From: Planctomycetota bacterium
Lineage (GTDB): Bacteria > Planctomycetota > UBA1135 > UBA2386
Direction of reading: 5' to 3'
NCBI GenBank assembly: GCA_965223545.1
Contig: OZ245006.1
Location: 4,832,001 to 4,896,000, forward strand
Length of the DNA stretch: 64,000 nucleotides
Part shown: piece by piece, positions 43,422 to 64,000 of the stretch
Numbering within the stretch: position 1 is the first letter of the stretch
How the letters are laid out: each line of letters starts with the position of its first letter
Program-made: the position numbers and the translations under genes
The notes under the pieces: model-generated
Database searches by the model: none
What the model was told of the DNA's origin: nothing
What the model saw: only the letters and a program-made list of their open reading frames with translations

Positions 43422-46400
43422 TCAGTCCGGCAACACGACCCGCTCGCCGTCGAGCCGGGCGCGACCCTCGGCGACCAGTAGGTCGATCGCCGTCGACACG
43501 CTCTCTTCGATCTGGCGGCCGACCCGTTTGGCGCCGAAGCGGCGGGCGGTGTCGCGCACCAGATCTTCGCGGCCAAGGCTGATGCCGAGCGCGAGCACTT
43601 CGGCGGCGGCGTGCGCGATCTCGGCCGGGTGGATGTCATCGATGTCGCGTTCGCCGCGACCCTCGTCGCCCGGGACGCGGTAGCCGGCGATGCGGCGGTG
43701 GCTGCCCGCGCTCCACAGGAACGCGCGGCCGTCGGCCAGCAGCTCCTTGTCGGCGCCGGCGCCGTCGACCAGCGCCTGCAGCCGCGCGCGCGCCTTCGCG
43801 GTCACTCGCTGCACGTCAAACGCGCCGGCGAGGCGCCGCAGCACGACTTCGAGGGCGACCGGCGACTCGCTGGCGACCAGTGTGGCCACCGCTTCGCGCG
43901 CGGCCGCCTCGTGCGTCTCGTCGTACAGCCCTTCGTCGTCGGCGATCGCCGGCAGCTCGACCTCGTCGTAGAGCGCCGGCGTGGCGCGCGCCGGAGCGCT
44001 GCCCTCGTCGATGGCTGGCGGTGGGGCCTCGGGCTCGGCCTCCTTTGGCTGCGGCGCGGGCGCGTCCGGCTGCTGCGCGGGCTCCGCCGCCGCCCGACGC
44101 GCCAGCGCGTCCTCGACCGCCCCGAGCAGGCGGCGCACCTCGGCGTCGCGATCGAACAACCAGTCGGTGGACCAGATGCGGTGCAGACTCCATCCCAGCG
44201 ACTCGAGCACGGATTGGCGGATGCGGTCGCGGTCGCGGGCCGAGGCGGTCGAGTGATAGGTCGCGCCGTCGCACTCGATGCCGAGCACGTAGTGGCCCGG
44301 CGCGTCGGGCGCGGTCACCGCCAGGTCGATGCGGTAGCCGGAGCAGCCGACTTGGTTGTGCACCGTGTGGCCGTGCTCTTCGAGCACCTCGTGCACGTCG
44401 CGTTCGAACGGCGAGTCCCAGTCGGCACCCGCGTGCGCGGCGCTGGACGTGCCGAGCGCCTCGGGACCGAGCCGCGCGTACTCGAGGAAGGCCTTGAGAT
44501 GGCGCACGCCGACCGCGGTGCTGCTGACCCGCGTCAGGTCGATCTGCTCGGGCTGCAGCGTGGAGAACACCAGCACCTGTTGCTTGGCGCGGGTGATGGC
44601 GACGTTGAGTCGCCGCTCGCCGCCCGGCTGGTTGAGCGGGCCGAAGTTCATGTAGACCCGGCCGCGCGCGTCGGGGCCGTAGCAGACCGAGAACAGGATC
44701 ACGTCGCGCTCGTCGCCCTGCACGTTCTCCAGGTTCTTGACGAACAGCGGCTCGTCGACTTCCTGTGCCAGGTGCGTGTCCAGCGCGGCATCCTCGCCGC
44801 GCGCCTCGTCGAGCAGGTCTTCGATCAGGGTCTGCTGCGGCCGGCTGAAGGTCACCACGCCGATCGAGCGTTGGTCGCCGGCGGCGATGCGGCTGCGGAT
44901 CTCGGTGAGGACGGCCTCGGCCTCGGCCCGGTTGGTGCGCGTCTTCGAGCGATCGTACACGCCGTCGATCGGGCGCCAGCGCACGCCCATCCGCGCGTCG
45001 CGGTCGGCGGGCGAGGGGAAGGTGAACAGCCGGTTGCCGTAGTAGTGGTAGTTGCTGAAGGCGATCAGGCTCTCGTGCCGGCTGCGGTAGTGCCAGCGCA
45101 GGTCGCGCGTCGGCAGCTGCGCCGCGATGCACTCGTCGAGGATGCTCTCGAGCTCCTCGACCATCTCCTCGTCGATCTCGACGTCCTCGTCCTGTTCGGC
45201 GCGGTGGAAGAAAGTGGTCGGCGGCAGCTGTTTGGAGTCGCCGACGACCACCAGGCGGGCGCCGCGTCCGATCGCGCCGATCGCGTCCCACACCGGAATC
45301 TGCGAGGCCTCGTCGAAGACGACCAGGTCGAACGGTGGAATGTCGGACGACAGGTACTGGGCGACCGACAGCGGGCTCATCAAGAAGCACGGCTTCAGCC
45401 GCGGCAGCAGGTGTGGCAGGCTGCGCAGCAGCACGCGGATCGGCCAGTGGCCGCGCTGCTTCTTGAGCTGGCGCTGGAGCACGCCGACCTCCGAGCCCGC
45501 GCTGGCGGTGCCGCCCGCGGTGCGCGGCATCCGCGCGGCGAGCCGAGCGCTTACCATCTGCTGCGCCAGCGTCGTCAGCGCGGCGTCGAGGTCGCGGAAC
45601 TGCTCGATCGCGTGCGCGTGCAAGTGGCCCTGGAACCGCCGCAGCTCCGGCTCGGCGTCGAGCAGCGCGCCGACCCACCAGTCCCAAAAGCTCGCGGCGT
45701 AGCGAGCGGCGACGTCGGCGGGCGCGCAACTGCCTGTCGCCAGTGCGTCCACCAACGGTTGCAGGTCGAGGGCGGCGGCGGCGTCGCGGGCGCGCACGTA
45801 AGCGGTCCAGGGGCGCAGGGCGCCGCGCTGCTCGAGCCAGCGGCCGGCAATGGCCGCGGCCCGGCCGGCGTAGCCGGTTTGCTCCGGCGCGCCGAACGCC
45901 GCGTCGTCCAGCGCCAGCAGGGTCGTGGCCTCGCTGCGGCATTCGTCGAAGGCCTCGAGGGTCGTGCGGCAGGTGCGCGTCGCGCGCTGCAGGTCGGGCA
46001 GCGCCGCCTGGCGGTCGGCACCGGCGACCGCCAGCCGCAGGCTAGTCGCCGGTGGCACACCGGTGTTCTGTTGCAGGATGGCGGCGGCCGCGGCGGTCCG
46101 CTGTGCCCATGCCAGCTCGGTGCTGAACGCGGGCCAATCGGGCGTCGCCTCGGCCGCGCGCTCGCCGAACGCGCGTTGCAGCATCGAGTGCGCTGCCTCG
46201 CACGCGCGCTCGTCGTCGCGCCAGGTGCGCGCCTGCTGCAGCTGCTGCGCGAGTTCGCCGCGGTGGGGAAGCTGTGGCGCGCGCAGGACGCCGCGCAGCG
46301 CCTTGACCACCGGTCGCCGGCGCCACCACGACAACGGAAACCAAGCGCTGTCGGCGCGCGCCAACCGCGCGGCCAGCGCCTCGAGATCGAGATCGAGCAG

Positions 46401-49223
46401 GCCGCGGTCGTAGATCGCGCCGAGTGCCGTGCGGGCGGCGTCCCGCCGCCCGCCGGCCTCGATCGCGCGCCCGAGTGCCGCGGCGAGGTCCGCCCGTGCC
46501 GCGTCCTCGAGCAGCGCGGCCTGCCCGGCCTGTCCGCCGGCGATCTCTTCGGCGAGGGCGAGCGCGGCCTCGAGGCCGGCGCGGCTCGGCGGTTCGGCGG
46601 ACGCGCCGAGGTTCTCGAGCAACCGGTCGCCGTCCTGCTCGAGGGCCCTGGCGCGCTCGGTCAAGCGTGCCGCGGTGTCTTCGAGCCGGCGTTCGAGTCC
46701 CCGGTCCCAGTCGTCGAGCCCGCAGTGCTCGAAGGCGTGGCCGGGCACCGCGCCGATGCCGCGCGCCGCCAGCTCGAGCTGCTCCGCGGCGGCATCCAGC
46801 TGCGCGCGGCGGGTCGCGTCGACGGCGTCCTCGGTGCCGAGCTCCAGCCGCACGGTGGCGGCGCCGCGGTGGCCGATCGCCGCCGAGAGGCCGGCGAAGG
46901 CCGAGACCCCGGCGGGCCGCCGCGCGCGCAGAGTCTCGCAGTAGGCGTTGAGCGTCTGTCGCGCCGCCAACAACCGGTCCGCCTGCGACTGCCACTCCTC
47001 GGGCTCGCGCAGACCGCCGATCTCGAGCGCCTCTTCGAGCTGCGCCAGCACCTGCTTCTTCTTGGCGCGGTTGGAGTGCAGCTCGAGACAGAACGGTCCG
47101 AGGCCGACGCGTTCGAGCCGCCGGCGCACGACGTGCAGGGCTGCCATCTTCTCGGACACGAACAGCACGCGTTGGCCTTCGGCGAGACAGTGCGCGATCA
47201 GGTTGGTGATGGTCTGCGACTTGCCGGTGCCGGGCGGCCCCTGCAGCACGAAGCTGCGGCCCTCGGCCGCGGCGAAGACCGCGGCGAGCTGCGACGAATC
47301 GGTGTTGAGCGGACAGTAGGTCTCTGCCGGCGAGCGGGCGTCCAGCGTGTCCGGTTCGGGAAACACCGCGTCGGGTTCGAACGGTTCCGCCGGTCGCTCG
47401 ACCAAGTGGCGCATCACCCGGCTGCGGCTCAACAGCTCGCGGTGCTCCTGCAGGTCGCGCCACATCAAGAACTTGGTGAACGAGAACAGGCCGATCGCCG
47501 CGGTCTCCTCGACGTCCCAGCGGTCGAACGGCAGCACTGCCTGGCGCACGCGGCGCACGATGTCCTCGACGTCGATCCCGGTGTCGTCCTCCGCGGGAGT
47601 CTCGAGGCCGCCGACGTCGAGGCCGAAGTCGTTGCGCAGCTTCTCCAGCAGGGTGATGTTGACACGCGGCTCCTCACCGGACAGCCGCACCGAGAAGCCC
47701 GAGCGTCGCGAGGGCCGCAGCAGATCGAGGGGCAGCAGCAGCAGCGGCGCGCGCCGGGGTTGCTGGCTCGCCGGGGCTTCGTACCAGGTCAGAAAACCGA
47801 GTGCGAGGTAGAGCAGGTTGGCGCCGCCCTCCTCGAAGCTGCTGCGCGCCTCGCGCTGCAGCTTGATCAGCCGCGGCTCGACCGCGTCTTCGGCGAGATC
47901 GGTGTGCAGCACGCCCTGCTCGAGGGCATCGTCGAGCGCCTGCTGCAGCGCGTCCGTGTGGGTGGTGGCCAGCGCCGGCCGCCCCGCCAGCCGGAACACC
48001 CGATCCTGAGCCAGCGCGTCTTCCAGCGCGGCGAGGTGCTGGCAGAGCAGCGGCACGGTGCGCAGGGTCTCGCGGTGGTTGAGCAGGCGATTGCGCAGCG
48101 AGAGGTCGAGCAGGCGGTGTTGCCACAGGTCGAGGCGCGACGCCGGTGTGGCCTGGGCTGCCGGAGCGCTGGCGGGCTCTGCCGAGGCCGCGTTCGCGGC
48201 GAGCGCCGGCTGGGTGGTAGCGGTACCAGCGACGGAGGGCTGCTCGGGGTACTCCTCCTCGTCGAACGCCGCCGCCGGCAGTGGGGCGATGTCGAGGGCG
48301 CGCGCGCGGCGCAAGTCGAGGGTGAACTCGTGCGCGTCGAGATCCCGCGCCGCGCGCCGGCCGGCGGTGACGGCCGCGTCGAAGTCGGCGCCCGCATCGG
48401 CGAACAGCGCCTGCGGGGTCCACACCTCGATCAGATCCAGGTCGAGCCGCTTCTTCAGCACCAGGCCTTCGGGCACGACGGCGGCGCGGAAGGTCTCCGC
48501 GCTCAGCCAAGAGCCGAGCAGGATGCCGTTGCGTTGCACCACGAGCAGCGGGTGCAGGCCGGCGCGCTCGAGCAGCGCGGCGCACAAGGTGGCCAGCTCC
48601 GCCGTGCTGGCGTTGCCGGCCGCCAGGATTTGCCCCGCGCTGCGCAGGGCCTGTGGCTGCAGCGGATCGGGATCGTCGGCGGCGCGGAGCACCTTGGCCG
48701 CGGCCAGCGCATCGAGGAGCGTGCGCGCGCGCGCACGGCTGTGCTCCGGGTCGCCCTGCACGTAGGCGGGCGCGTCGAGCTCGACGTCGGCGAGAAGGGT
48801 GTCGAGGGCCGGGTGTGACGGCTGGCAGAACGCCGCCAGCAGCTCCGGCTGCGCGGCGCCGCCGCACCACTCGGTGGCCGGCAGGACAGTGAACTCTCGC
48901 CGCGTGTCGGCGACGACGCGTTCGCCCCGCTGCAGCGCCGCCGACAGGATCGCGGGCACCGGTTCGCGGATCGTGGTGAGGCGCGCGGCGTCGAGGGGCA
49001 GCGGTGGTGGTTCGCTCTGCAACGCCGACGCCGGCAGGCGCAGGGGCTCGCCGAGCGCGGGCTCGACGCGCAGCTCCAGGCTGCATTCGTCGAGCGGCGG
49101 CAAACCGGCGCGGTGGATGCGCAGCGTTTGGATCAGCGGCGTGCCGCAGTGGAGGTGGGCGAGCCCGGCGCGATCGGAGATCGCGAGCTCGAGCGGAGCC
49201 GTGGGCGTCGGGGCCGATGGCAT
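43422..49223 (-). CDS. DUF4011 / SF1 helicase / Vsr-like (MTES_1575-type) nuclease / DUF3320 protein, ~1933 aa (Hhe-like anti-phage protein)
   Basis: W..RLLDLSLRNRLLN (DUF4011), QGPPGTGKSQTI.N, VLFVSEK.AAL, CFLMSPLSVAQ, FDEASQ, GDSKQLPP, HYRSRHE.LI, ENVQGDERD, GERRLNVAITRA, SPFE..V...Q.GC.GYRIDL...GIECDGATYH..ARDRD..RQ..LE..GW...RIWSTDW. Confidence 0.92.
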   Translation of the reverse strand: MPSAPTPTAPLELAISDRAGLAHLHCGTPLIQTLRIHRAGLPPLDECSLELRVEPALGEPLRLPASALQSEPPPLPLDAARLTTIREPVPAILSAALQRGERVVADTRREFTVLPATEWCGGAAQPELLAAFCQPSHPALDTLLADVELDAPAYVQGDPEHSRARARTLLDALAAAKVLRAADDPDPLQPQALRSAGQILAAGNASTAELATLCAALLERAGLHPLLVVQRNGILLGSWLSAETFRAAVVPEGLVLKKRLDLDLIEVWTPQALFADAGADFDAAVTAGRRAARDLDAHEFTLDLRRARALDIAPLPAAAFDEEEYPEQPSVAGTATTQPALAANAASAEPASAPAAQATPASRLDLWQHRLLDLSLRNRLLNHRETLRTVPLLCQHLAALEDALAQDRVFRLAGRPALATTHTDALQQALDDALEQGVLHTDLAEDAVEPRLIKLQREARSSFEEGGANLLYLALGFLTWYEAPASQQPRRAPLLLLPLDLLRPSRRSGFSVRLSGEEPRVNITLLEKLRNDFGLDVGGLETPAEDDTGIDVEDIVRRVRQAVLPFDRWDVEETAAIGLFSFTKFLMWRDLQEHRELLSRSRVMRHLVERPAEPFEPDAVFPEPDTLDARSPAETYCPLNTDSSQLAAVFAAAEGRSFVLQGPPGTGKSQTITNLIAHCLAEGQRVLFVSEKMAALHVVRRRLERVGLGPFCLELHSNRAKKKQVLAQLEEALEIGGLREPEEWQSQADRLLAARQTLNAYCETLRARRPAGVSAFAGLSAAIGHRGAATVRLELGTEDAVDATRRAQLDAAAEQLELAARGIGAVPGHAFEHCGLDDWDRGLERRLEDTAARLTERARALEQDGDRLLENLGASAEPPSRAGLEAALALAEEIAGGQAGQAALLEDAARADLAAALGRAIEAGGRRDAARTALGAIYDRGLLDLDLEALAARLARADSAWFPLSWWRRRPVVKALRGVLRAPQLPHRGELAQQLQQARTWRDDERACEAAHSMLQRAFGERAAEATPDWPAFSTELAWAQRTAAAAAILQQNTGVPPATSLRLAVAGADRQAALPDLQRATRTCRTTLEAFDECRSEATTLLALDDAAFGAPEQTGYAGRAAAIAGRWLEQRGALRPWTAYVRARDAAAALDLQPLVDALATGSCAPADVAARYAASFWDWWVGALLDAEPELRRFQGHLHAHAIEQFRDLDAALTTLAQQMVSARLAARMPRTAGGTASAGSEVGVLQRQLKKQRGHWPIRVLLRSLPHLLPRLKPCFLMSPLSVAQYLSSDIPPFDLVVFDEASQIPVWDAIGAIGRGARLVVVGDSKQLPPTTFFHRAEQDEDVEIDEEMVEELESILDECIAAQLPTRDLRWHYRSRHESLIAFSNYHYYGNRLFTFPSPADRDARMGVRWRPIDGVYDRSKTRTNRAEAEAVLTEIRSRIAAGDQRSIGVVTFSRPQQTLIEDLLDEARGEDAALDTHLAQEVDEPLFVKNLENVQGDERDVILFSVCYGPDARGRVYMNFGPLNQPGGERRLNVAITRAKQQVLVFSTLQPEQIDLTRVSSTAVGVRHLKAFLEYARLGPEALGTSSAAHAGADWDSPFERDVHEVLEEHGHTVHNQVGCSGYRIDLAVTAPDAPGHYVLGIECDGATYHSTASARDRDRIRQSVLESLGWSLHRIWSTDWLFDRDAEVRRLLGAVEDALARRAAAEPAQQPDAPAPQPKEAEPEAPPPAIDEGSAPARATPALYDEVELPAIADDEGLYDETHEAAAREAVATLVASESPVALEVVLRRLAGAFDVQRVTAKARARLQALVDGAGADKELLADGRAFLWSAGSHRRIAGYRVPGDEGRGERDIDDIHPAEIAHAAAEVLALGISLGREDLVRDTARRFGAKRVGRQIEESVSTAIDLLVAEGRARLDGERVVLPD

Positions 49224-49313
49224 GGCGACTGCACACGATTCCGCCGGCGGCGGTCGCGCGCAACGCGGAATTGGTCGAGCGCCCGGCGGGGGTTCGTGCG
49301 ATCGTTCTCGGCG

Positions 49314-50579
49314 ATGGTCACGCCGGCGAGATTGAACACAACGAGTGGTGTGCTGCTGCTGGCGGTCGCGCTGTCGTGCGCGCCCGCCGGGCCCGATGGA
49401 TCTGCCGGGTCCGACGCGCCGACCAAGGTGGTGCCCGAGCCGGCCCCGCAGCAGGCGGTGGGGCCGCCCCAGGCCGATCCGTGGAACACCGGCGAATGGC
49501 AAACCACCGCCTCGGGCCTGCAGTACCGCGTGCTGGAGCCCGGTGAGGGAGCGCCACCGGGGCCGGCCGACCAGGTCACGCTGCACTACACCAAGCAGGT
49601 CGCCGGCGGCGCGGTCGTGGCGACGGCCACGCCGGATGCGCCCGCGTCGGTGGTGGTCGGTGGGCTGCCGACGGCGGGCTGGAACGAGGCCGTCGCGCTC
49701 ATGCGGCCCGGTGCGCACCACCTGATCAAGATCCCGCCACACATCGGCTACGGCGAGATGGGCATGGACCCGGTGCCGCCCGACGCCACGCTGCACGTCG
49801 ACTGTCGCATGCTGTCGGTGCGTCGCATTCCGGAGTTTCGTCGGCTGCGTCCCGATCGGCAGCGGCACGCGCACCTCGGGCTGGTCTTCGACGTGCTGCG
49901 CGAAGGCTCCGGCACGGCGCCGGGGGACGACGAGACCGTGCGCTACCACTGCACGGTGTGGAACCACGCCGGCGATCTGGTCGAGAGCACGCTGTACGGC
50001 GCGGCGACCGAAGCGCGCCTCGCCGACTTGCCGCTGCCGGTGCACCGCGAGGCGTTGCGGCTGATGCGCCCGGGTTCGACGGTCTTGTTCCGCGCACCGG
50101 ACGAGATCACCTATCCGCGCGATCCGCGCTCTCGCCCGTCAACGATGCCCGTCGGCCGTCCCAGCTATTGGCGGTTGCGTCTGCTGGGCATCGTTCGCCC
50201 GCAGGCCGTGCCCGCGTTCGCCGGGGCCGATCCATCGGCGATGCAGAAGACCGACACTGGTCTTCGTTACGAAGTGCTGCAGGAAGGCGGCGGTGCGCCG
50301 CCGTCGCCGAGCGATCGCGTCGCCGTCCACTACGCCGGCTGGTTGGCGGACGGTTCCCTGTTCGACAGCTCGTACCCGCGGGGTGCGCCGGCGGAGTTCG
50401 ACGTCGACGGAGTGATCGCCGGCTGGCGCGAGGCGCTGCTGCGGATGGCGCCCGGCGCCGTGTACCGCCTGTGGATTCCGCCCGAGCTGGCGTACGCCGA
50501 AACCGGTGTGCCGGGCATGGTGCCGCCGGATGCGGTCTTGCTGTTCCACGTGCACCTGGTGCGCGTGCTGCGGCAGTAG
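49314..50579 (+). CDS. Triple-domain FKBP-type peptidyl-prolyl isomerase, probable lipoprotein
   Basis: Three FKBP repeats (SGLQY.VL..G.G..P...D.V.(V/L)HY; FDSS..RG; VI.GW.EAL..M; IPP..(G/A)Y); lipobox ALSC. Confidence 0.9.
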   Translation: MVTPARLNTTSGVLLLAVALSCAPAGPDGSAGSDAPTKVVPEPAPQQAVGPPQADPWNTGEWQTTASGLQYRVLEPGEGAPPGPADQVTLHYTKQVAGGAVVATATPDAPASVVVGGLPTAGWNEAVALMRPGAHHLIKIPPHIGYGEMGMDPVPPDATLHVDCRMLSVRRIPEFRRLRPDRQRHAHLGLVFDVLREGSGTAPGDDETVRYHCTVWNHAGDLVESTLYGAATEARLADLPLPVHREALRLMRPGSTVLFRAPDEITYPRDPRSRPSTMPVGRPSYWRLRLLGIVRPQAVPAFAGADPSAMQKTDTGLRYEVLQEGGGAPPSPSDRVAVHYAGWLADGSLFDSSYPRGAPAEFDVDGVIAGWREALLRMAPGAVYRLWIPPELAYAETGVPGMVPPDAVLLFHVHLVRVLRQ

Positions 50580-56231: not shown

Positions 56232-57620
56232 ATGAGGTTTCGCCGTTGGGTCGTGTTCACCTTCATGGTGCACATGCTGATCATCGTGCTCGACAAGGGC
56301 GCGGGGTTCGTGCTCCTCAAGATCCTCGAGGACGCTCCGGACGAAAAGGGCGCGGCCGACATCCTCGGCACCCTGCCGTTCATCATGATGTCGGTGGCCA
56401 ACCTCGGCCTGGCGACATCGTCGGTCTACTTCCTGCGGCGCAAGGAATACACCAAGGAGGAGGTCGGCGAGACGGCGAGCTTGGTGGCGATGGTGTGGGG
56501 CGGCACGGTCGCGTTGGTCGCGATCCTGGTGACCCAGTTCGTGATGCCGGCGATCAAGCCCGAGTGGGAGTTCCAGCTGGCGTGGGTCCTGCCGGTGTGT
56601 CTGTGCGTCCCGTTCCTGTTGATGTCGAGCTACTTCAACAGCGTGCAGATCGCCGTCGACCACATCCGCAACTACAACTTGGTCAACCTGCTGGGTTCGG
56701 TGGTGTTCCTGCCGCTGTTCTTGGTGTTCTACTACGCCGCCGGCGCCGTGGTGACGACCAGCATCGCGCTGGCGCGACTGGCGGCGGCGATGCTGTTGGC
56801 GGGTACCACCGTGTGGATGCTGCGCAAGGTCGTGCGCTGGCGTCCCCGCATGCACTGGCAGTTCTTCCGCGCCGCGATCACGTTCGGCTGGAAGGCGAAC
56901 TTGACGTCGGTGCTCACCTACCTCAACCACCGCATCGACCTGCTCATGGTGCCGATGCTGTTCGTGCCGGCGGCGATGCTCAGCGACGAACAGGCGGCCA
57001 AGGCGATCCTGGCGCAGGCCGGCTACTACAGCTTGGCAGTGGGCTTTGCCGAGCTGGTTTGGCACTTTCCGGAAGCCACCCGCGATCTCTTCTTCAGCAA
57101 GGTGGCGGCGTCGACGCACGACGAGGCGAGGAAGTTCACGCCCGTCCTCTGCCGCCTGTCGCTGTGGGTGGCGATCGCGGGTTCGGTGGTGATCGTCACG
57201 CTGGTCGATCCGGTGTTCTCCATGCTGATGCCCGACAGCTGGGAGGAGAAATGGAGCGGCGACGTGCTGACTGCGCTCACGATCTTGGTGCCCGGCACCG
57301 CCGGCTACACGGTGGCGAAGATCCTGCAGAACGACCTCGCCGCGCGCGGCCACTTGAACCACTGTCTGGTGGCGTGCTCCTTGGTGCTGGCGATCATGCT
57401 GACGCTCGATTTCGCCTGGATTCCGCAGCACGGCGCGATCGGTGCCGCCTGGGCCTCCTCGATCGCCTACCTGTGCTCGTCGGTCTACTCGCTGCTCGCC
57501 TACCGGTCCTCTGGGGGGACGGGGGTGTTGCAGTGTCTGGTGCCGCGGGTGGCGGACTGGGTCTACGTCCGGGAGATCGCCGGCGGCATTCTCGACAAGC
57601 TGAGGTGGCGCCGTGGCTGA
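56232..57620 (+). CDS. Wzx-like oligosaccharide flippase (MOP superfamily)
   Basis: About 12 TM helices; NLGL..SSVYF, LN.RID.LM, AGYYSLAV..AE, IP..GAIGAAWASSIAY. Confidence 0.9.
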   Translation: MRFRRWVVFTFMVHMLIIVLDKGAGFVLLKILEDAPDEKGAADILGTLPFIMMSVANLGLATSSVYFLRRKEYTKEEVGETASLVAMVWGGTVALVAILVTQFVMPAIKPEWEFQLAWVLPVCLCVPFLLMSSYFNSVQIAVDHIRNYNLVNLLGSVVFLPLFLVFYYAAGAVVTTSIALARLAAAMLLAGTTVWMLRKVVRWRPRMHWQFFRAAITFGWKANLTSVLTYLNHRIDLLMVPMLFVPAAMLSDEQAAKAILAQAGYYSLAVGFAELVWHFPEATRDLFFSKVAASTHDEARKFTPVLCRLSLWVAIAGSVVIVTLVDPVFSMLMPDSWEEKWSGDVLTALTILVPGTAGYTVAKILQNDLAARGHLNHCLVACSLVLAIMLTLDFAWIPQHGAIGAAWASSIAYLCSSVYSLLAYRSSGGTGVLQCLVPRVADWVYVREIAGGILDKLRWRRG

Positions 57621-58479
57621 GCCGCGGGTCGCCGTGATCGTCCCCTGCTACAACAACGCCGCCACGCTGGCCGAAACGCTGGAGTCGGTGCGCGGACAAA
57701 CCGTGCCGCTCGAGGTCGTGGTCGTCGACGATGGCTCGGAAGACGAGAGCGCGGCCGTGGCCGACCGCGCCGGCGTGCGCTGCATCCGGCAGGCCAACGC
57801 CGGGCCGGGCGCGGCGCGCAACCGGGGCGTGCGCGAAACCGGCGCGCGCTGGCTCGCCTTCTTGGATGCGGATGATCGCTTCGCCACCGACAAGCTCGCG
57901 CGTCAGCTGCAGCACGCCGACGAGACCGGGGCAGTGCTCAGCTGCTGCGACGCCCGCTTGTTGTGCGATGGCGAGCTCGGCGCACGCAAGCACGCGGGCC
58001 AAGAGATCCCGGCGGAGATCTCCTACGCGGGTCTGCTGCTCGACAATCCGATCATCTGCAGCTCGGTGCTGCTGCGGCGCGCAGCGTTCGAGCAGGCCGG
58101 TGGCTTCGACGAGGACCGCGCCCTGATCGCCACCGAGGACTACGACCTCTGGTTGCGGATCGCGCGCGTGGGCGCGGTGCGCTATCTCGACGCGCCGCTG
58201 GTGCACTACCGAGTGTGGAGTGGCAGCCTGTCCGACGACGAGCGGTTCGTGCACGGCCTGGACCGCATCATGGAGAAGGTCGCCGCCGCCGGCGGTGGGC
58301 CAAAGGACTTGCCCGCGCGGATCGCGCGGCGGCGCGCGGCGGTCCGGGTCGCGTCGGCGTACCACCTCGCGCGCCGCGGCGAGGGCGCGCGCGCGCGGGC
58401 GCGCCTGGCCGAGGCGCGGGCCCTCACCGGCGCCAGCTGGCCGGCGTTCAAGATCTGGCTGCGGAGCTGGTGGCGATGA
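57613..58479 (+). CDS. Glycosyltransferase family 2
   Basis: VIVPCYN, VVDDGS.D, N.GPGAARNRG, FLDADD, EDYDLWLR. Confidence 0.95.
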   Translation: MAEPRVAVIVPCYNNAATLAETLESVRGQTVPLEVVVVDDGSEDESAAVADRAGVRCIRQANAGPGAARNRGVRETGARWLAFLDADDRFATDKLARQLQHADETGAVLSCCDARLLCDGELGARKHAGQEIPAEISYAGLLLDNPIICSSVLLRRAAFEQAGGFDEDRALIATEDYDLWLRIARVGAVRYLDAPLVHYRVWSGSLSDDERFVHGLDRIMEKVAAAGGGPKDLPARIARRRAAVRVASAYHLARRGEGARARARLAEARALTGASWPAFKIWLRSWWR

Positions 58480-59597
58480 CCGGGCGGCACTTCTTGCACG
58501 TTTTCCCGAGCTTCGATCCGGGCGGGATGGAGGTCCGCGCGACCACCCTGATGGACCGGTTGGCGCCCCCCGACCGGCACACGGTGGTTTCGATGAGTGG
58601 CCGGATCAGCGCCGCGGAGCGCGTGCAGCGGGCGCGCCTCGACCTCTTGCCGGCGCCGCCACGTGGTAGTTTCGCCGCCACCGGCCGGCGCATGGCCGCG
58701 CGTCTGCGCGCGCTGCGCCCGGATCTGGTGCTCACCTACAACTGGGGCTCGATCGAGAGCGTGCTCGGCGCGCGTTGGGCCGGGCAGCGCGCGCTGATCC
58801 ACCACGAGGAGGGATTCGGCGTCGACGAGGCGGTGCGTCTCAAGCGCCGGCGCATGTGGGTGCGGCGCGCGCTGCTGCCGCGCGCTGCGGCCGCGGTGGT
58901 GGTGCCTTCGATGTTGTTGCGCGGCGTCGCGTGCCAGCGCTGGCGACTGCCGGAGGTGCTGGTGCGCTATCTGCCCAACGGCGTGGACCTCGAGCTCTTC
59001 CACCCCGCGCCGCGCCGCGAAGCGGAGGGTGCGGCGGCCGGCGGGCCGGTGGTGGTCGGCAGCGTCGCCCGGTTGCGGCCGGAGAAAAACCTCGGCGCGT
59101 TGGTCGAGGCGTTTGCCCGATGCCGGCAGCGCGCCCGGGCGGAGCTCGTGCTGGTGGGCGATGGGCCGCAGCGAGAATCGCTCGAACGTGCCGCGCAGGA
59201 GTGCGGCGTCGGCGACCGCGTGCGCTTCGCCGGGCATCTCGGCGATCCGGCGCCGACCTACCGCTCGTTCGACGTGTTCGCGATGAGCTCGCGCACCGAG
59301 CAGATGCCGCTGGTCGTCTTGGAGGCGATGGCGTGCGGCTTGCCGGTGGTGGCCACCGACGTCGGCGACATCCGGCACATGGTCGCCGAAGCCAACCGCG
59401 ACCTGTTGGTCCCCGACGGCGATCGGGCCGCGCTGGCGGCTGCGCTCGACCGCGCGATCGAGTCGGCCGCGCTGCGCGGGGAGTTGGGTGCCGCCAATCG
59501 CGCGGTGTGCGAGGAGCGCTACGCGTTGGACGAGTGCCTGGCCGCGCATCTCGAGCTCTACGACCGCGTCATCGGATCGTCGGGACTCGCTCGCTGA
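58476..59597 (+). CDS. Glycosyltransferase family 4
   Basis: GGME, LPNGVD, VARL.PEKN, GDG, S..E.MP.V.LEAMACGLPVVATDVG. Confidence 0.95.
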   Translation: MTGRHFLHVFPSFDPGGMEVRATTLMDRLAPPDRHTVVSMSGRISAAERVQRARLDLLPAPPRGSFAATGRRMAARLRALRPDLVLTYNWGSIESVLGARWAGQRALIHHEEGFGVDEAVRLKRRRMWVRRALLPRAAAAVVVPSMLLRGVACQRWRLPEVLVRYLPNGVDLELFHPAPRREAEGAAAGGPVVVGSVARLRPEKNLGALVEAFARCRQRARAELVLVGDGPQRESLERAAQECGVGDRVRFAGHLGDPAPTYRSFDVFAMSSRTEQMPLVVLEAMACGLPVVATDVGDIRHMVAEANRDLLVPDGDRAALAAALDRAIESAALRGELGAANRAVCEERYALDECLAAHLELYDRVIGSSGLAR

Positions 59598-59650: not shown

Positions 59651-59720
59651 CCGAGAATCGACCTTGGGGTTCGCACGGCTCCATCGCTGAGGCAGGCGTC
59701 ACTCAGCCAAGGAGACCCAA

Positions 59721-61166
59721 ATGAAGATCCTCGATCCCCGTCGTTTGTCCCCCACGACCCTGCTCGTGCCCGCCGTGCTCGCCGCCGGCATGGCCGCGCA
59801 GACCCCGCAGCCGCCGTCGTTCCAGCGCTCCGCGCTGGTCCCCTCGCTCAACGTGGCCGGGGTGAGCCGGCATGCGGCGACGCTCAATCTCGGCGGCACC
59901 CAGATCGTGCTCGAGGAGAACGCGGTCGGTGCCAAGGGCGACCTGGTGTCGCTGCGCCGGCCCGACAAGTCGACGCCGTGGACCAGCGACGGCCTGGTTG
60001 GTCCGCTGAACACCGCGAGCCACGAGGGGTGGCCGGCGCTCAACGCGTTCGGCGACGTGCTCTACTTCACCTCGGACCGCGCCGGGGGGGTCGGCGACCT
60101 CGATCTCTGGTGTGCGAGTCGGCCGGACGACGAGGCGCCGTTCTCGGGCGTGGCCGTCAATCTCTCCGCAGTCAACTCGCCGTTCTGGGACAGCGATCCC
60201 TGGATCGATTTTCCCGAGACCCAGCTGCTGTTCGCGAGCAAGCGTCCCGGTGGGCCCGGCGGCGCCGACCTCTACGCGTCGGTGAGCACTGGTACCGGCG
60301 GCTCCTGGTTGGCGCCGGTCGAGATCTTGGGCGTCAACTCGCCGTACGACGAGTGCGCGCCGACCCTGACGCGTGACGGTCTCCATCTCTACTTCAGCTC
60401 CAACCGGCCACGGACCGGCGGTGGCGCGGCCGGAGACTTCAACATCTACGTCGCTTCGCGGCCGGACCCGTTTTCGAACTTCGGGGCGCCGCGATTGGTG
60501 CCCAGCCTGAGCGGGCCCAATGACGACATCCAGGCGGTGGTGCCGTTCTTGGCCTCGCACGCGTACGTGTCCGCCGGCCAGCAGGGCAGCTATCGCATCC
60601 GCGAGGCAGTGCGCGACGGCGCTGACATCCTCGGGCTGGACGCACCGGTGCTCGACGGTGGCTATGCGATCGCGCTGGCGCGCAACCCCGGTGATACCGG
60701 CGTCATCCTGGCCGCCCTGGCGACCGGCAACCCGGTGCAGATCCCCGGCGTGCAGGGTGCGTTCGGGCTCGATCTCGGCACCACCGCCGTCCTGGCTCAG
60801 GGGCCCCTCGACGCAAGCGGCTTGCAGCCACTGACGTTCTACCTGCCGAACAACCCGGCGCTCACCGGCCTGCAGCTGGCGTTTCAGGGCTTGGTCGCCG
60901 ACGGCAGCGGCAACGCCTGGTTCACCGAGTCCGTCTCGGTGGCCGTGGTCGCGTCGCGTGGTGGTTGCTACAGCAGCGCGAAGGCCTGCATCGGCGGCTG
61001 CTTCTCCAGCATCCCCAGCAACATCGTCAGCTGTCTGATCCAGAAGGTCTGGAAGATCGTGTTCGGTGTGAAGTCCTACGCCAAGGCGGTTGCGAAGTGC
61101 ATCGGCAAGAACTTCGGCAACTGCCTCTACAGCTGCGTCAAGACCTACGTGCGCTGCATCTTCTGA
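59721..61166 (+). CDS. Secreted PD40/TolB-like propeller protein + shared terminal domain + C-terminal Cys-rich cationic peptide
   Basis: AAGGAG RBS; signal peptide; repeats N(T/S)...(E/D)..P.L..DG..LYF.S.R.GG.G..DL(W/Y); LPNNPALTG.QL.FQ; RGG-C... tail with 8 Cys. Confidence 0.9.
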   Translation: MKILDPRRLSPTTLLVPAVLAAGMAAQTPQPPSFQRSALVPSLNVAGVSRHAATLNLGGTQIVLEENAVGAKGDLVSLRRPDKSTPWTSDGLVGPLNTASHEGWPALNAFGDVLYFTSDRAGGVGDLDLWCASRPDDEAPFSGVAVNLSAVNSPFWDSDPWIDFPETQLLFASKRPGGPGGADLYASVSTGTGGSWLAPVEILGVNSPYDECAPTLTRDGLHLYFSSNRPRTGGGAAGDFNIYVASRPDPFSNFGAPRLVPSLSGPNDDIQAVVPFLASHAYVSAGQQGSYRIREAVRDGADILGLDAPVLDGGYAIALARNPGDTGVILAALATGNPVQIPGVQGAFGLDLGTTAVLAQGPLDASGLQPLTFYLPNNPALTGLQLAFQGLVADGSGNAWFTESVSVAVVASRGGCYSSAKACIGGCFSSIPSNIVSCLIQKVWKIVFGVKSYAKAVAKCIGKNFGNCLYSCVKTYVRCIF

Positions 61167-61211
61167 GGCCGCTCCGGGCTTATACTGGCAGCCCTGTCCG
61201 GGTGTTCGGCC

Positions 61212-63770
61212 ATGGACGCCAACCAACCGACCGTGAGTAGCGATCAACGCCTGCTGGCTCTGGTCCAGCAGGCGTTGGCCGACATCGCCGAAGGCGTGAC
61301 GCTGGACCTCGACGCCTTGTGCGCGGACGCTCCCACGCTGCGCGACGCGGTGGCCGAGACGCTTGGCCTCGCTTCGCACCTGCCGCGCCTACAGCAGACC
61401 GCCCGCCAGCACGGCGTTCTCGCCGGCACCGTCCTCGCCGATCGCTACGAGTTGCGCCAGCGGTTGGGTGCGGGCGCGATGGGGGTCGTCTACGCGGCCC
61501 ACGACCACGAGCTCGACCGCGAGGTGGCGGTCAAGCTGCTGCACGCCGGCTTGGCGTTCGATGCCGCGCGCCGCCAGCGCTTCTTGCGCGAGGCCGAGAC
61601 CCTGGCCGCGGTGCAAGACGACCACGTCGTGCCGATCTACGACCGCGGGGAGTCCGAGCAAGGACTGTTGTTCTTGGTGATGCCTCGGCTGGCGGGGCGG
61701 GCCATGTGGGACTTGCTACAGGAGCGGCGGGCGTCGGTCGCACCGGGCGATTGGTTGCGGCGCCCGTGGCGGCTCAGCGAGCATGGCATCGACGCTGCGA
61801 GCGGTGAAACGGACTTCGCGCGCATCGCGGTCGGCTGGGTTGCCGATCTGGCCCGCGGGCTCGCCGCCGCGCACCGCGCCGGCCTCGTGCACCGCGACGT
61901 CAAGCCGTCCAATGCGTTCGTGCGCGAGGACGGCCGCGCGGTGTTGCTCGACTTCGGTTTGGCAAAGGCGGACGGTGACGCGAGCTTGTCCGGCGGCTCG
62001 CCAGTGGGGACTCCCTTCTACATGGCGCCGGAGCAGGCCCGGGGCGAGCCGGCGACCGAGGCCTCCGACACCTATGGACTCGGCGCGACCCTGTACGACC
62101 TGCTCGCCGGGCAGCCGCCGTTCGGCGATACCCCCGAGCGCGTGCTCGCGCGTCTGCTGCGCGATGCGCCGGTGCCGATCCTTCGGCTACAGGAGGGTCT
62201 GCACCGCGATTTGGCAGCGATCGTGGAGCGCGCGATGGAGTTCGCACCAGCCCGGCGCTATCCCACGGTCGGTCACTTCTGCGCTGACCTGAGCGCAGTC
62301 TTGGACCGGCGGCAGGTCGCGGCGCGGCCGATTGGTGCGTTGGGACGGCTGTGGCGCTCCGCGCGCCGCCACCCGGCGCGGGCCGCGTCGGTGGCCGCGG
62401 CCGGCGTGGCGCTGAGCGTCGTCGTGCCCTTCACTTCGTTGTCGCTCGATGTCCGCGCGGCGGAGCGCGACCGGCGCGTCCTCGCGCACGCGGCGCAGTT
62501 GGGGATGCGGGCGCCGTTCGTCGGTAGTCCGGGGCGGCGTGGCGAAGTCGAGACCGCGGAGCGGCAGCGCAACCTCGACGCGCTCGATGCCATCCTCGCA
62601 CTCACCCCGGACGACGTGCCGATGCGGGTCCGGCGCGCGGCCTTGCTGAGCGACCGGGGTGCGGACGGCGATGCCGCCCGCGCGGCCGCGGACGCCGCGC
62701 ACGTCGCGCGCGCCCGTCCGGACAGCACCTTGTTTGCAGAGCTGGCGCGCGCCTACCGCGGCGTGGTCGAGACAGGTGGTGGAGATCCGCTGGCCGTGGT
62801 CTCTCTCACGGTGGAACCGCGCACTCCCGACGAGCGCTTTGCCGCGACGTTGCACTTCATCCGCCGACAGAAGGACGCCACCGATCCCCGCGCCTGCCGG
62901 CGATGGCTCGATCCGGTGCTGGCCGACTCGCGCGCCTGCCGAGAGCTGTGCGGCATGGTGTTCGTGTTCGAGATCGTCAGGGCGCGCATCGGCGGCGACA
63001 TGGGGAGGCATCGCGAGCGCGCCCGCGCGGCCTTGGCGCACGCCACGTCGCTGGATCGAGAGTACGGGGTTCCGAGCCAGCGCGGCCGTTCGCTGGCGGC
63101 GTTCGCCCGGTTGGAGCTCGACGACTTCGCCGGCGCGGTGGAGCTGCTGCGCGCGGCCGTGCGACGGGCGCCCGGTGAGCACGGCGACCTGCTGCATCTG
63201 GGCATCGCGCACCGTCGGCTGGGGCAGCTCGACCAAGCGCGGTCGGCGCTGCGGGCCGCGCACGGGCTCCGGCCCGAGCTGGCCAACACGATGTACGAGC
63301 TGGCCGAGGTCGAGCAGGAGCGGGATGACCTGGCGGCGGCGTTGGAGTGGGCGGAACGCATTCCGCCGGCCAGTCGGTTGCGCGGCTTGGCCATCGGTCA
63401 CGTGCGCATGCGCGAGGGGCTATCCCAGCTGCGGGCGGGTGATCCCGCCGCGGCCGACGCCGCCTTCGCGGCCGCCGAAGCGGTGCTTGGTGCGACTCCC
63501 GGCGCGGCCAGCGGGGTGCTGCGGCGACGGGTAGCGGCCCTGCGATCCGGTCGATCGATCGAGGCCTTCGTTCTGCTGGCCGACGCCGTGCGCCAGCGCG
63601 TGACTTCGCCGCAAGCGCTCACCCAGCTCGCCGAGCAGATGCCCGAAGTCCTCGATGCGTCCGGGGTCGCGGCCATGCGTGCCGTGCTCCGTGATTTGGC
63701 ATCACACCTGTCGCCGGACGAGCCGGCGCCGCAACCCGATTCGAGTTTGCCAGCTCCGCAGGAGAAGTGA
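61212..63770 (+). CDS. Hanks-type Ser/Thr protein kinase with TM segment and TPR region
   Basis: LGAGAMGVVY, VAVKLL, RFLREA, HRDVKPSN, LDFGLA, GTPFYMAPEQ, D.YGLG; C-terminal TPRs. Confidence 0.95.
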   Translation: MDANQPTVSSDQRLLALVQQALADIAEGVTLDLDALCADAPTLRDAVAETLGLASHLPRLQQTARQHGVLAGTVLADRYELRQRLGAGAMGVVYAAHDHELDREVAVKLLHAGLAFDAARRQRFLREAETLAAVQDDHVVPIYDRGESEQGLLFLVMPRLAGRAMWDLLQERRASVAPGDWLRRPWRLSEHGIDAASGETDFARIAVGWVADLARGLAAAHRAGLVHRDVKPSNAFVREDGRAVLLDFGLAKADGDASLSGGSPVGTPFYMAPEQARGEPATEASDTYGLGATLYDLLAGQPPFGDTPERVLARLLRDAPVPILRLQEGLHRDLAAIVERAMEFAPARRYPTVGHFCADLSAVLDRRQVAARPIGALGRLWRSARRHPARAASVAAAGVALSVVVPFTSLSLDVRAAERDRRVLAHAAQLGMRAPFVGSPGRRGEVETAERQRNLDALDAILALTPDDVPMRVRRAALLSDRGADGDAARAAADAAHVARARPDSTLFAELARAYRGVVETGGGDPLAVVSLTVEPRTPDERFAATLHFIRRQKDATDPRACRRWLDPVLADSRACRELCGMVFVFEIVRARIGGDMGRHRERARAALAHATSLDREYGVPSQRGRSLAAFARLELDDFAGAVELLRAAVRRAPGEHGDLLHLGIAHRRLGQLDQARSALRAAHGLRPELANTMYELAEVEQERDDLAAALEWAERIPPASRLRGLAIGHVRMREGLSQLRAGDPAAADAAFAAAEAVLGATPGAASGVLRRRVAALRSGRSIEAFVLLADAVRQRVTSPQALTQLAEQMPEVLDASGVAAMRAVLRDLASHLSPDEPAPQPDSSLPAPQEK

Positions 63771-64000
63771 TGAGACCGACGATCCCGATCACGTGTTTCG
63801 TGTTGGCGGCCGCCACGGGCGGAGCGCAGACACCGTTTTCGCAAGGGCCAGCGGCGGGAGTTGCGGTGGCGTTCTCGGTGACTGGCACGGCAACCGGAGT
63901 CGAGCAGATCCAAGTGCGGCGCACCGGTTTCGACCGTACGCCGCGCCCTTGGGCACCGCGGCCGGGCCGTCCCGACTTCCGCTACCGCCCGCTGTTCGAG
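63770..64000 (+). CDS. Secreted hypothetical protein, N-terminal part (runs off window)
   Basis: ATG overlaps the kinase TGA; MRPTIPITCFVLAAATGGAQ signal peptide; frame open to the window end. Confidence 0.65.
   Translation, partial: MRPTIPITCFVLAAATGGAQTPFSQGPAAGVAVAFSVTGTATGVEQIQVRRTGFDRTPRPWAPRPGRPDFRYRPLFE

Follow-up and report, generated by a model that had tools for sequence, protein, structure and literature searches.

The protein encoded at positions 59721-61166 (+ strand) of the window, the 64,000-nucleotide stretch of planctomycete DNA analysed here, ends in ASRGG followed by a 66-aa cysteine- and lysine-rich tail. This tail is a real, codon-adapted in-frame fusion and the only one of its kind in the genome (8.1 Mb, 70% GC, 91% complete). 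It is read here, tentatively, as a membrane-active, probably antibacterial peptide that is exported as the cargo of a secreted carrier. The carrier would leave the cytoplasm by the Sec route together with its tail, which would be oxidised after export to C1-C64/C8-C57/C12-C53/C23-C45, a two-armed hairpin stapled by four nested disulfides. In this form the tail would be likely to bind and disturb negatively charged membranes and to act against bacteria. Its release, if any, would depend on an extracytoplasmic protease cutting at the flexible Arg-Gly-Gly linker and not on the cytoplasmic C39 route, and the tail could also act while still attached to the carrier. It may once have been a free-standing peptide gene that was fused in frame.

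A wider claim is doubtful, namely that a planctomycete exports a new class of antibacterial peptide on an end-domain exoprotein, as a hairpin with a four-rung ladder that needs no leader, transporter or cluster and is oxidised without DsbB, VKOR or MauE. If it is true, cluster-based bacteriocin mining would miss such carrier-borne peptides. If the tail is active, it would provide an antibacterial scaffold of 7 kDa, small and likely stable, that belongs to no catalogued family and comes from a lineage in which antagonism has hardly been studied. It would also imply that antibacterial peptides can go unnoticed at the ends of otherwise ordinary secreted proteins. The finding concerns one gene with no confirmed family.

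The carrier and its tail

The ORF encodes 481 aa. The features of the carrier and of the flanking genes are, in order of position:

57613..59597, + strand: GT2 (288 aa) and GT4 glycosyltransferases of surface-polysaccharide type, probably unrelated to the tail
59710..59714, + strand: ribosome-binding site AGGAG, 6 nt before the ATG, read from the sequence
59721..59798, + strand: likely Sec signal peptide over residues 1-26, assigned by eye
59838..60605, + strand: PD40 repeat region, residues ~40-295 (Pfam PF07676, approximate boundaries)
60612..60950, + strand: Ig-like beta-sandwich end domain without a name, residues ~298-410 (iterated HMM)
60951..60965, + strand: ASRGG linker, flexible, a possible protease site and not a canonical double-glycine leader
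60966..61163, + strand: 66-aa cationic amphipathic 8-Cys tail (translation, composition, hairpin model)
61164..61166, + strand: stop codon TGA, matched exactly by records from two studies
61212..63770, + strand: Ser/Thr kinase with TPRs, 852 aa, probably unrelated, which opens a kinase / secreted protein / ECF module

The putative signal peptide has a basic start, a hydrophobic stretch and a cleavage site between Met-Ala-Ala and Gln, as judged by eye from the translation. The Pfam scan places PF07676 in the carrier with E 7.5e-10 (best stretch 206-244), and PD40 is present in all 32 other matches of the full-protein search; the region likely forms a beta-propeller. A PD40 carrier, likely secreted, with an appended tail is retained from the preliminary description. 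The end domain is common to 326 ORFs of the genome (iterated HMM). Its model is an all-beta sandwich (pLDDT 72) with generic Ig/FN3-type Foldseek matches (best E 8.5e-4), and no Pfam or NCBIfam family is shared among the 41 members scanned. Structural look-alikes in the Atlas, a lead only at a score of 0.84, come mostly from Planctomycetota. That sibling proteins stop at this domain is mostly correct, 291 of the 326 ORFs ending within 15 residues of it; the rule does not extend to the 26 with extensions of 16-100 residues. The other 25 of these hold 0-1 Cys, and a short Cys/Lys-rich tail is found in 1/326, the 59721-61166 ORF only. Cargo in this position means that the end domain need not be the last element of a protein. 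In about 21 of the end-domain ORFs (e.g., C1:1262658-1263818 and C1:6823047-6824144) the domain is followed by 40-58 residues that finish in a hydrophobic strand-like motif.

The tail has 8 Cys, 8 Lys, 1 Arg, 9 Ser/Thr and no Asp, Glu or His, with a mass of 7170.6 Da reduced or 7162.5 Da with four disulfides and a pI of 9.4. Its cysteines lie at 1, 8, 12, 23, 45, 53, 57, and 64 (spacing 6-3-10-21-7-3-6). Position behind ASRGG, composition and spacing all agree with the preliminary description, which had also set the Lys-rich tail apart from the rest of the protein set: of the basic residues, 8.7% are Lys across the family as against 8 of 9 in the tail (P(>=8 of 9) = 3e-8). The computed charge is ~-16 for the carrier and ~+9 for the tail. 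A composition so opposite to that of the family (Lys 8/9 of the basic residues, no acidic residue) argues for antibacterial cargo. On the other side, killing and anchoring are not separable by composition alone, and the carrier's acidity is not unusual (24% of 282 family ORFs reach it); therefore nothing shows a neutralising pro-region, and a charge-neutralising carrier was rejected as unsupported.

The physical features that suggest killing would equally serve a tether. The tail would then be retained and non-lytic, a disulfide-stiffened amphipathic hairpin that binds anionic lipid or polysaccharide, keeping the propeller attached to the envelope of the producing cell or to the surface of a target. 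Such a tether would require no immunity gene or processing enzyme, and none was seen; it would also sit at the C-terminus, where other family members carry their extensions of 40-58 residues. It is nevertheless somewhat unlikely. If the tail were a useful anchor, more than one of the 326 proteins, or the nearest carriers, should have it, the use of Lys over Arg runs against the family's strong Arg preference, and eight cysteines presumably exceed what an anchor needs.

Codon usage separates the tail from its carrier. GC3 is 0.955 vs. 0.887, two-fold codons end in G/C in 27/28 vs. 86/103 cases, and codon adaptation is 0.88 vs. 0.72, a value attained by 1.2% of the 326 family C-termini with the tail counted and partly a composition effect. 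Strong adaptation is in keeping with the antibacterial reading. The only other frame that shares the third positions of the tail, on the reverse strand, has 4 stops and no Pfam match, and an origin by antisense capture was rejected. Contigs of three runs cross the junction between carrier and tail with 0 differences and 0 gaps, all of them from a single sample from which the window itself may derive; in addition, a 151-nt record of a different study is identical to 61061-61211 (second half of the tail plus stop). The junction is not an assembly join.

The sharp differences in composition and codon adaptation (0.88 vs. 0.72) are also what a recent accident would leave, in which a small, selected peptide gene lost its start and leader by in-frame deletion and is now part of a secreted protein unrelated to it, perhaps with little function there. 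The nearest carriers lack the tail, 19 relatives do not have the gene at the corresponding locus, and the GG that immediately precedes Cys1 might be what is left of a leader. Such an accident is improbable all the same: the last strand of the carrier is intact, the join to the tail is a clean five-residue linker, and no free-standing version of the tail peptide was found in the database and genome searches.

Predicted fold and proposed disulfide ladder

The tail is predicted to fold as a helical hairpin. A single-sequence AlphaFold2 model has helices at 2-15, 18-32, and 38-65 (mean pLDDT 75, pTM 0.47), is most confident at the ends (86-88) and turns near Gly34, midway between C23 and C45; the hairpin of the preliminary description is recovered in it. 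The helices 18-32, 36-51, and 50-66 are amphipathic, with hydrophobic moments of 0.56, 0.40, and 0.53 (maximum up to 0.6), and this, with the charge of ~+9, fits the cationic, amphipathic helices that had been proposed. The best 19-residue hydropathy window is 1.53, which is weak for a transmembrane anchor, and no stretch of the tail looks like a clear transmembrane helix. Amphipathic helices with weak transmembrane hydropathy favour membrane-active cargo; the single-sequence model with its pTM of 0.47 counts against this reading. GlyGly-CTERM and MYXO-CTERM signals combine Gly-Gly(-Cys), one transmembrane helix and a terminal basic cluster in ~25-35 aa. A signal of this kind was rejected, the tail having 66 aa, Lys spread throughout and the 1.53 window; no GlyGly-CTERM or MYXO-CTERM model of the NCBIfam library, which presumably includes them, matches the carrier at E <= 1.

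Fold searches with the tail model returned antiparallel two-helix hairpins over residues 1-66. These are generic (PDB best E 3.7; VIA best Z 6.3, rmsd 5.2 over 64 residues; viral best E 1.2) and list no peptide family, which excludes nothing. Against Pfam, NCBIfam, PHROGs and PDB sequences nothing is better than E 0.11. By structure prediction, fold search and these libraries the tail matches no known domain, the structural or anchoring match that might have overturned the preliminary description included. A module that binds proteins, inhibits proteases or holds metal, and has no membrane role, is quite unlikely. Eight thiols could bind metal if reduced, and disulfide-stapled hairpins include trypsin inhibitors and non-lytic peptides (PMC4695807), whereas the tail has no His, Asp or Glu, has long amphipathic faces and gives no specific fold match.

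The cysteines of the tail mirror each other about its centre. Taken as nested pairs, their positions sum to 65, 65, 65, and 68. Random placement gives the mirror spacing in 0.0011 of 2,000,000 trials (post hoc, uncorrected), and mirror spacing plus helix-periodic outer spacings in 0.00015 (post hoc). Nested disulfides are favoured because of the mirror spacing and the predicted helical hairpin, and the pairs would be C1-C64, C8-C57, C12-C53, and C23-C45. The ladder proposed earlier is hence plausible, the pairing itself being deduced from spacing and model. Mirror-placed cysteines with helix-periodic spacing, and a hairpin model that is most confident at its ends, support the antibacterial reading.

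Whether this organism pairs cysteines outside the cytoplasm bears on the same reading. Here the signs point both ways. Searches of the genome (91% complete) for DsbB, VKOR, DsbA-like (Thioredoxin_4) and MauE genes found none, and even numbers of Cys per whole protein are not in excess (101/190, p 0.21); both count against the antibacterial reading, the Cys parity being in itself uninformative. In favour of it, the organism's exported proteins appear to pair their cysteines. Of 251 end domains, 137 have Cys in both of two columns, 16 and 10 in one column only and 88 in neither, with an odds ratio of 75 among proteins that are kin and not independent, and this co-occurrence appears to be the pattern of a structural disulfide. 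Possibly the genome encodes a disulfide-forming route of another kind. A preprint whose main text does not mention planctomycetes reports structural disulfides in species without any of the three known oxidases (10.64898/2026.03.05.709764).

Relatives of the tail and known peptide families

As far as sequence searches reach, the tail is an orphan with no confirmed relative. The best other match in its own genome (tblastn) has E 0.97 and the best in the genomes of 40 relatives E 0.11. In a set of 5.8 billion proteins it finds itself only in the 264-842 aa range and nothing in the 30-263 aa range. Matches to the tail pattern number 149 and 150 in JGI metagenomes, 57 in GTDB contigs and 90 in IMG/VR, 0 of them confirmed, and all 10 matches to a relaxed pattern in GTDB are without likeness beyond the pattern. 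Plasmids gave 1 record (E 2) and the ESM Atlas no usable match. Two further matches were rejected: one at class level (1/338 other genomes, E 0.009), which is antisense to a long ORF, and one at phylum level (1/400 genomes, E 0.0025), which is interrupted by 2 stops. The mirror Cys motif occurs in two ORFs among the proteins of the genome, the tail and one shadow frame; its DNA pattern across 339 genomes is swamped by off-frame matches (252 genomes), and among the matches listed, a composition scan of the genome's ORFs for tail-like peptides is dominated by shadow frames. The occurrence of the same tail on other carriers, a search for which the preliminary description had proposed, was not confirmed in genome, protein, metagenome, viral, or plasmid searches.

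A search of 1.84 billion representatives with the tail, at all lengths, returned three matches: the tail itself, P0003 and a mussel repeat (E 7e-4), the last plainly spurious and rejected as chance. P0003, on a 648-nt contig in ENA, is the sole similar sequence (E 1.4e-4) and has 19 identities in a 41-residue stretch that corresponds to the hairpin centre. Its two extra cysteines correspond to tail residues 27 and 41, with the same position sum (68) as C23 and C45; a hairpin centre kept with mirror-placed cysteines is a point for antibacterial cargo. P0003 has Ser at the C45 position and no counterpart to the outer cysteines, and the 8-Cys pattern is not kept. The best match to its residues ~11-48 is a codon-aligned antisense shadow of a housekeeping ORF in the window's genome, which we take to be phosphoglycerate kinase. 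It looks like a chimeric shadow ORF and is a hint of a relative, not a family. A poor witness of this kind and the lack of a confirmed homologue weigh against antibacterial cargo.

The nearest carriers with the same two-domain layout are four loci from 3/300 other genomes (E <= 1e-25) and P0009. They are 32-46% identical to the carrier, and 5/5 end at the end domain without a tail; a search of JGI metagenomes gave no close orthologue. Among the 32 other matches of the full-protein search, three were read over their whole length. Because the nearest carriers all stop at the end domain, the tail is, on the evidence of these sequences, lineage-specific, added to a type of carrier that normally has none. 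Polymorphic toxins consist of a toxic C-terminal module on a secreted carrier, and the tail resembles them as a possible toxic module in that place. Unlike them, it comes with no alternative tails on the related carriers compared, no orphan cassettes and no small immunity gene downstream, where the kinase / secreted protein / ECF module lies instead, and the pattern of variable tails on one carrier that had been envisaged was not seen among the five nearest carriers, which show no tail swapping.

Double-glycine class II bacteriocins and Lys/Trp-rich leaderless helical bacteriocins are small, cationic, amphipathic and helical, with nearly no acidic residues. The tail shares the small size, the charge, the amphipathic character and the near absence of acidic residues, and is predicted to be helical. 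It differs from these groups as the C-terminal part of a signal-peptide protein, with a presumed four-disulfide ladder, no immunity or transporter gene and no family match, and it has neither the short N-terminal leader of double-glycine bacteriocins, which ends in GG, GA or GS and is cut by a C39 peptidase, nor their nearby C39 transporter. Glycocins have a helix-loop-helix fold and CX6C spacing. These bacterial peptides (glycocin F, sublancin, thermoglycocin) have nested disulfides and follow a Gly-Gly site (PMC12457901). The spacing of the tail and its hairpin model fit a nested-disulfide hairpin; in contrast to glycocins, the tail has no short leader, no C39 transporter or glycocin-type glycosyltransferase in a cluster at its locus and no spare Cys for a sugar, and it sits behind a 415-residue secreted carrier.

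Plant alpha-hairpinins are Lys/Arg-rich helix-loop-helix peptides with the motif C1xxxC2-(x)n-C3xxxC4 and two disulfides, and some are cut from large precursors, e.g., a 666-aa vicilin-like protein (PMC4695807). The tail is like MiAMP2, Ec-AMP1, and Tk-AMP-X in its Lys/Arg-rich, antiparallel helix-loop-helix (predicted), its CxxxC...CxxxC arrangement and its nested disulfides (presumed). It differs in being bacterial, with 66 aa, 8 Cys and four putative disulfides in place of the four-Cys, two-disulfide motif, and in its CxxxC motifs (8/12 and 53/57), which lie 40 residues apart with two Cys between them. No alpha-hairpinin matches the tail by sequence or fold (PDB and fold searches). The tail looks built like alpha-hairpinins and glycocins, yet outside both and outside double-glycine bacteriocins. 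That known Lys/Arg-rich, disulfide-stapled hairpins are defence peptides, some of them cut from large precursors, favours the antibacterial reading (PMC4695807, PMC12457901). No description of such a tail appeared among the papers listed by searches of largely open-access main texts.

The Gly-Gly linker and the neighbouring genes

The linker's Gly-Gly occupies residues 414-415 of the 481, far behind the signal peptide at the N-terminus, and no leader-like stretch precedes it. The double-glycine site of glycocins and their kin is the last part of an N-terminal leader, which is cleaved by a C39 transporter (PMC12457901). The single C39 transporter of this genome (PF03412 match) lies ~2 Mb from the carrier with its own precursor directly upstream, and residue -4 of the carrier site is Ser vs. 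Ile in this canonical precursor. Gly is found among the last four residues of 171/326 family ORFs and GG in the last six of 21/326. With no leader, a deep position, a far C39 transporter and Gly common in the family, the site is therefore best read as a flexible linker, an extracytoplasmic protease site or the remnant of a leader; a plain linker would also suit a tether. Classical Gly-Gly processing of the tail is unlikely, and the bacteriocin-type cleavage first proposed for this site, 415 residues into the protein, is set aside. Directly upstream of the C39-peptidase ABC transporter (C1:2871944-2874442) lies a 63-aa precursor that combines a canonical double-glycine leader with a Ser/Trp/Gly-rich core and a Pro-rich end.

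With 9 Ser/Thr and 8 Cys, the tail might also be a RiPP core (Cys-oxidised, lanthipeptide or glycocin type) on which enzymes from other loci act. Two LanC-like genes, two MbnB-like ones and the one C39 transporter are present in the genome, and a GT2 gene lies 1.2 kb upstream of the carrier. A RiPP core is very unlikely. All five genes are 0.6-2.6 Mb from the carrier (the LanC-like ones ~2.5 Mb), and two of them adjoin a precursor of their own. No LanM, LanKC, or LanL synthetase adjoins the carrier; the neighbouring kinase matches LanL over profile positions 181-460 of 851 only, its kinase part, with 110 bits against a cut-off of 650. The GT2 gene best matches polysaccharide-type models, all under their cut-offs. 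No leader or follower motif is apparent, and disulfides account for the mirror Cys-to-Cys spacing. A LanM-like gene (C1:7362006-7365294) is followed by a candidate lanthipeptide precursor, a 132-aa ORF whose end is densely packed with Cys and Thr. The second LanC-like gene is at C1:2290457-2293558, and the MbnB/TglH/ChrH-family genes are at C1:5503217-5503996 and C1:4275102-4275950.

Neither flanking side appears to be tied to the tail. The kinase gene starts 45 nt downstream of the carrier, with a TATACT hexamer within the gap, and is followed by a 488-aa secreted end-domain protein with an overlapping start and then by an ECF sigma factor (window 61212-64000; C1:4897237-4897809). Kinase-associated ECF sigma groups have been described, among them ECF43, ECF59-62, and ECF217 (PMC7826278). 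As in those modules, kinase and ECF sigma factor are encoded together here, a likeness that concerns the neighbour and not the tail. An ECF gene lies within 3.5 kb of 77 of the 108 kinase ORFs of the genome, including 5/6 closest paralogues of this neighbour, and an end-domain gene directly upstream is found in 5/108 only. The sensing or immunity unit suggested for the kinase thus gives way to a common kinase-ECF module. No immunity gene, dedicated protease or transporter was seen at the locus, which tells against antibacterial cargo.

Upstream, GT4 is conserved in 78/90 family genomes, and the carrier is within 1.5 kb at 0/19 relatives' loci. The gap between the glycosyltransferase genes and the carrier contains a hairpin with a T-run (z -0.59) that the terminator scan did not pick up; a terminator at this place is unproven. 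The glycosyltransferase genes are headed by a gene for a 462-aa multi-pass membrane protein (window 56232-57620, + strand), which has no Pfam or NCBIfam match at E <= 1 and is, by position, probably a polysaccharide flippase. Elsewhere in the window, a 2207-aa ORF (43422-50045, - strand) looks by eye like a large superfamily-1 helicase/nuclease fusion.
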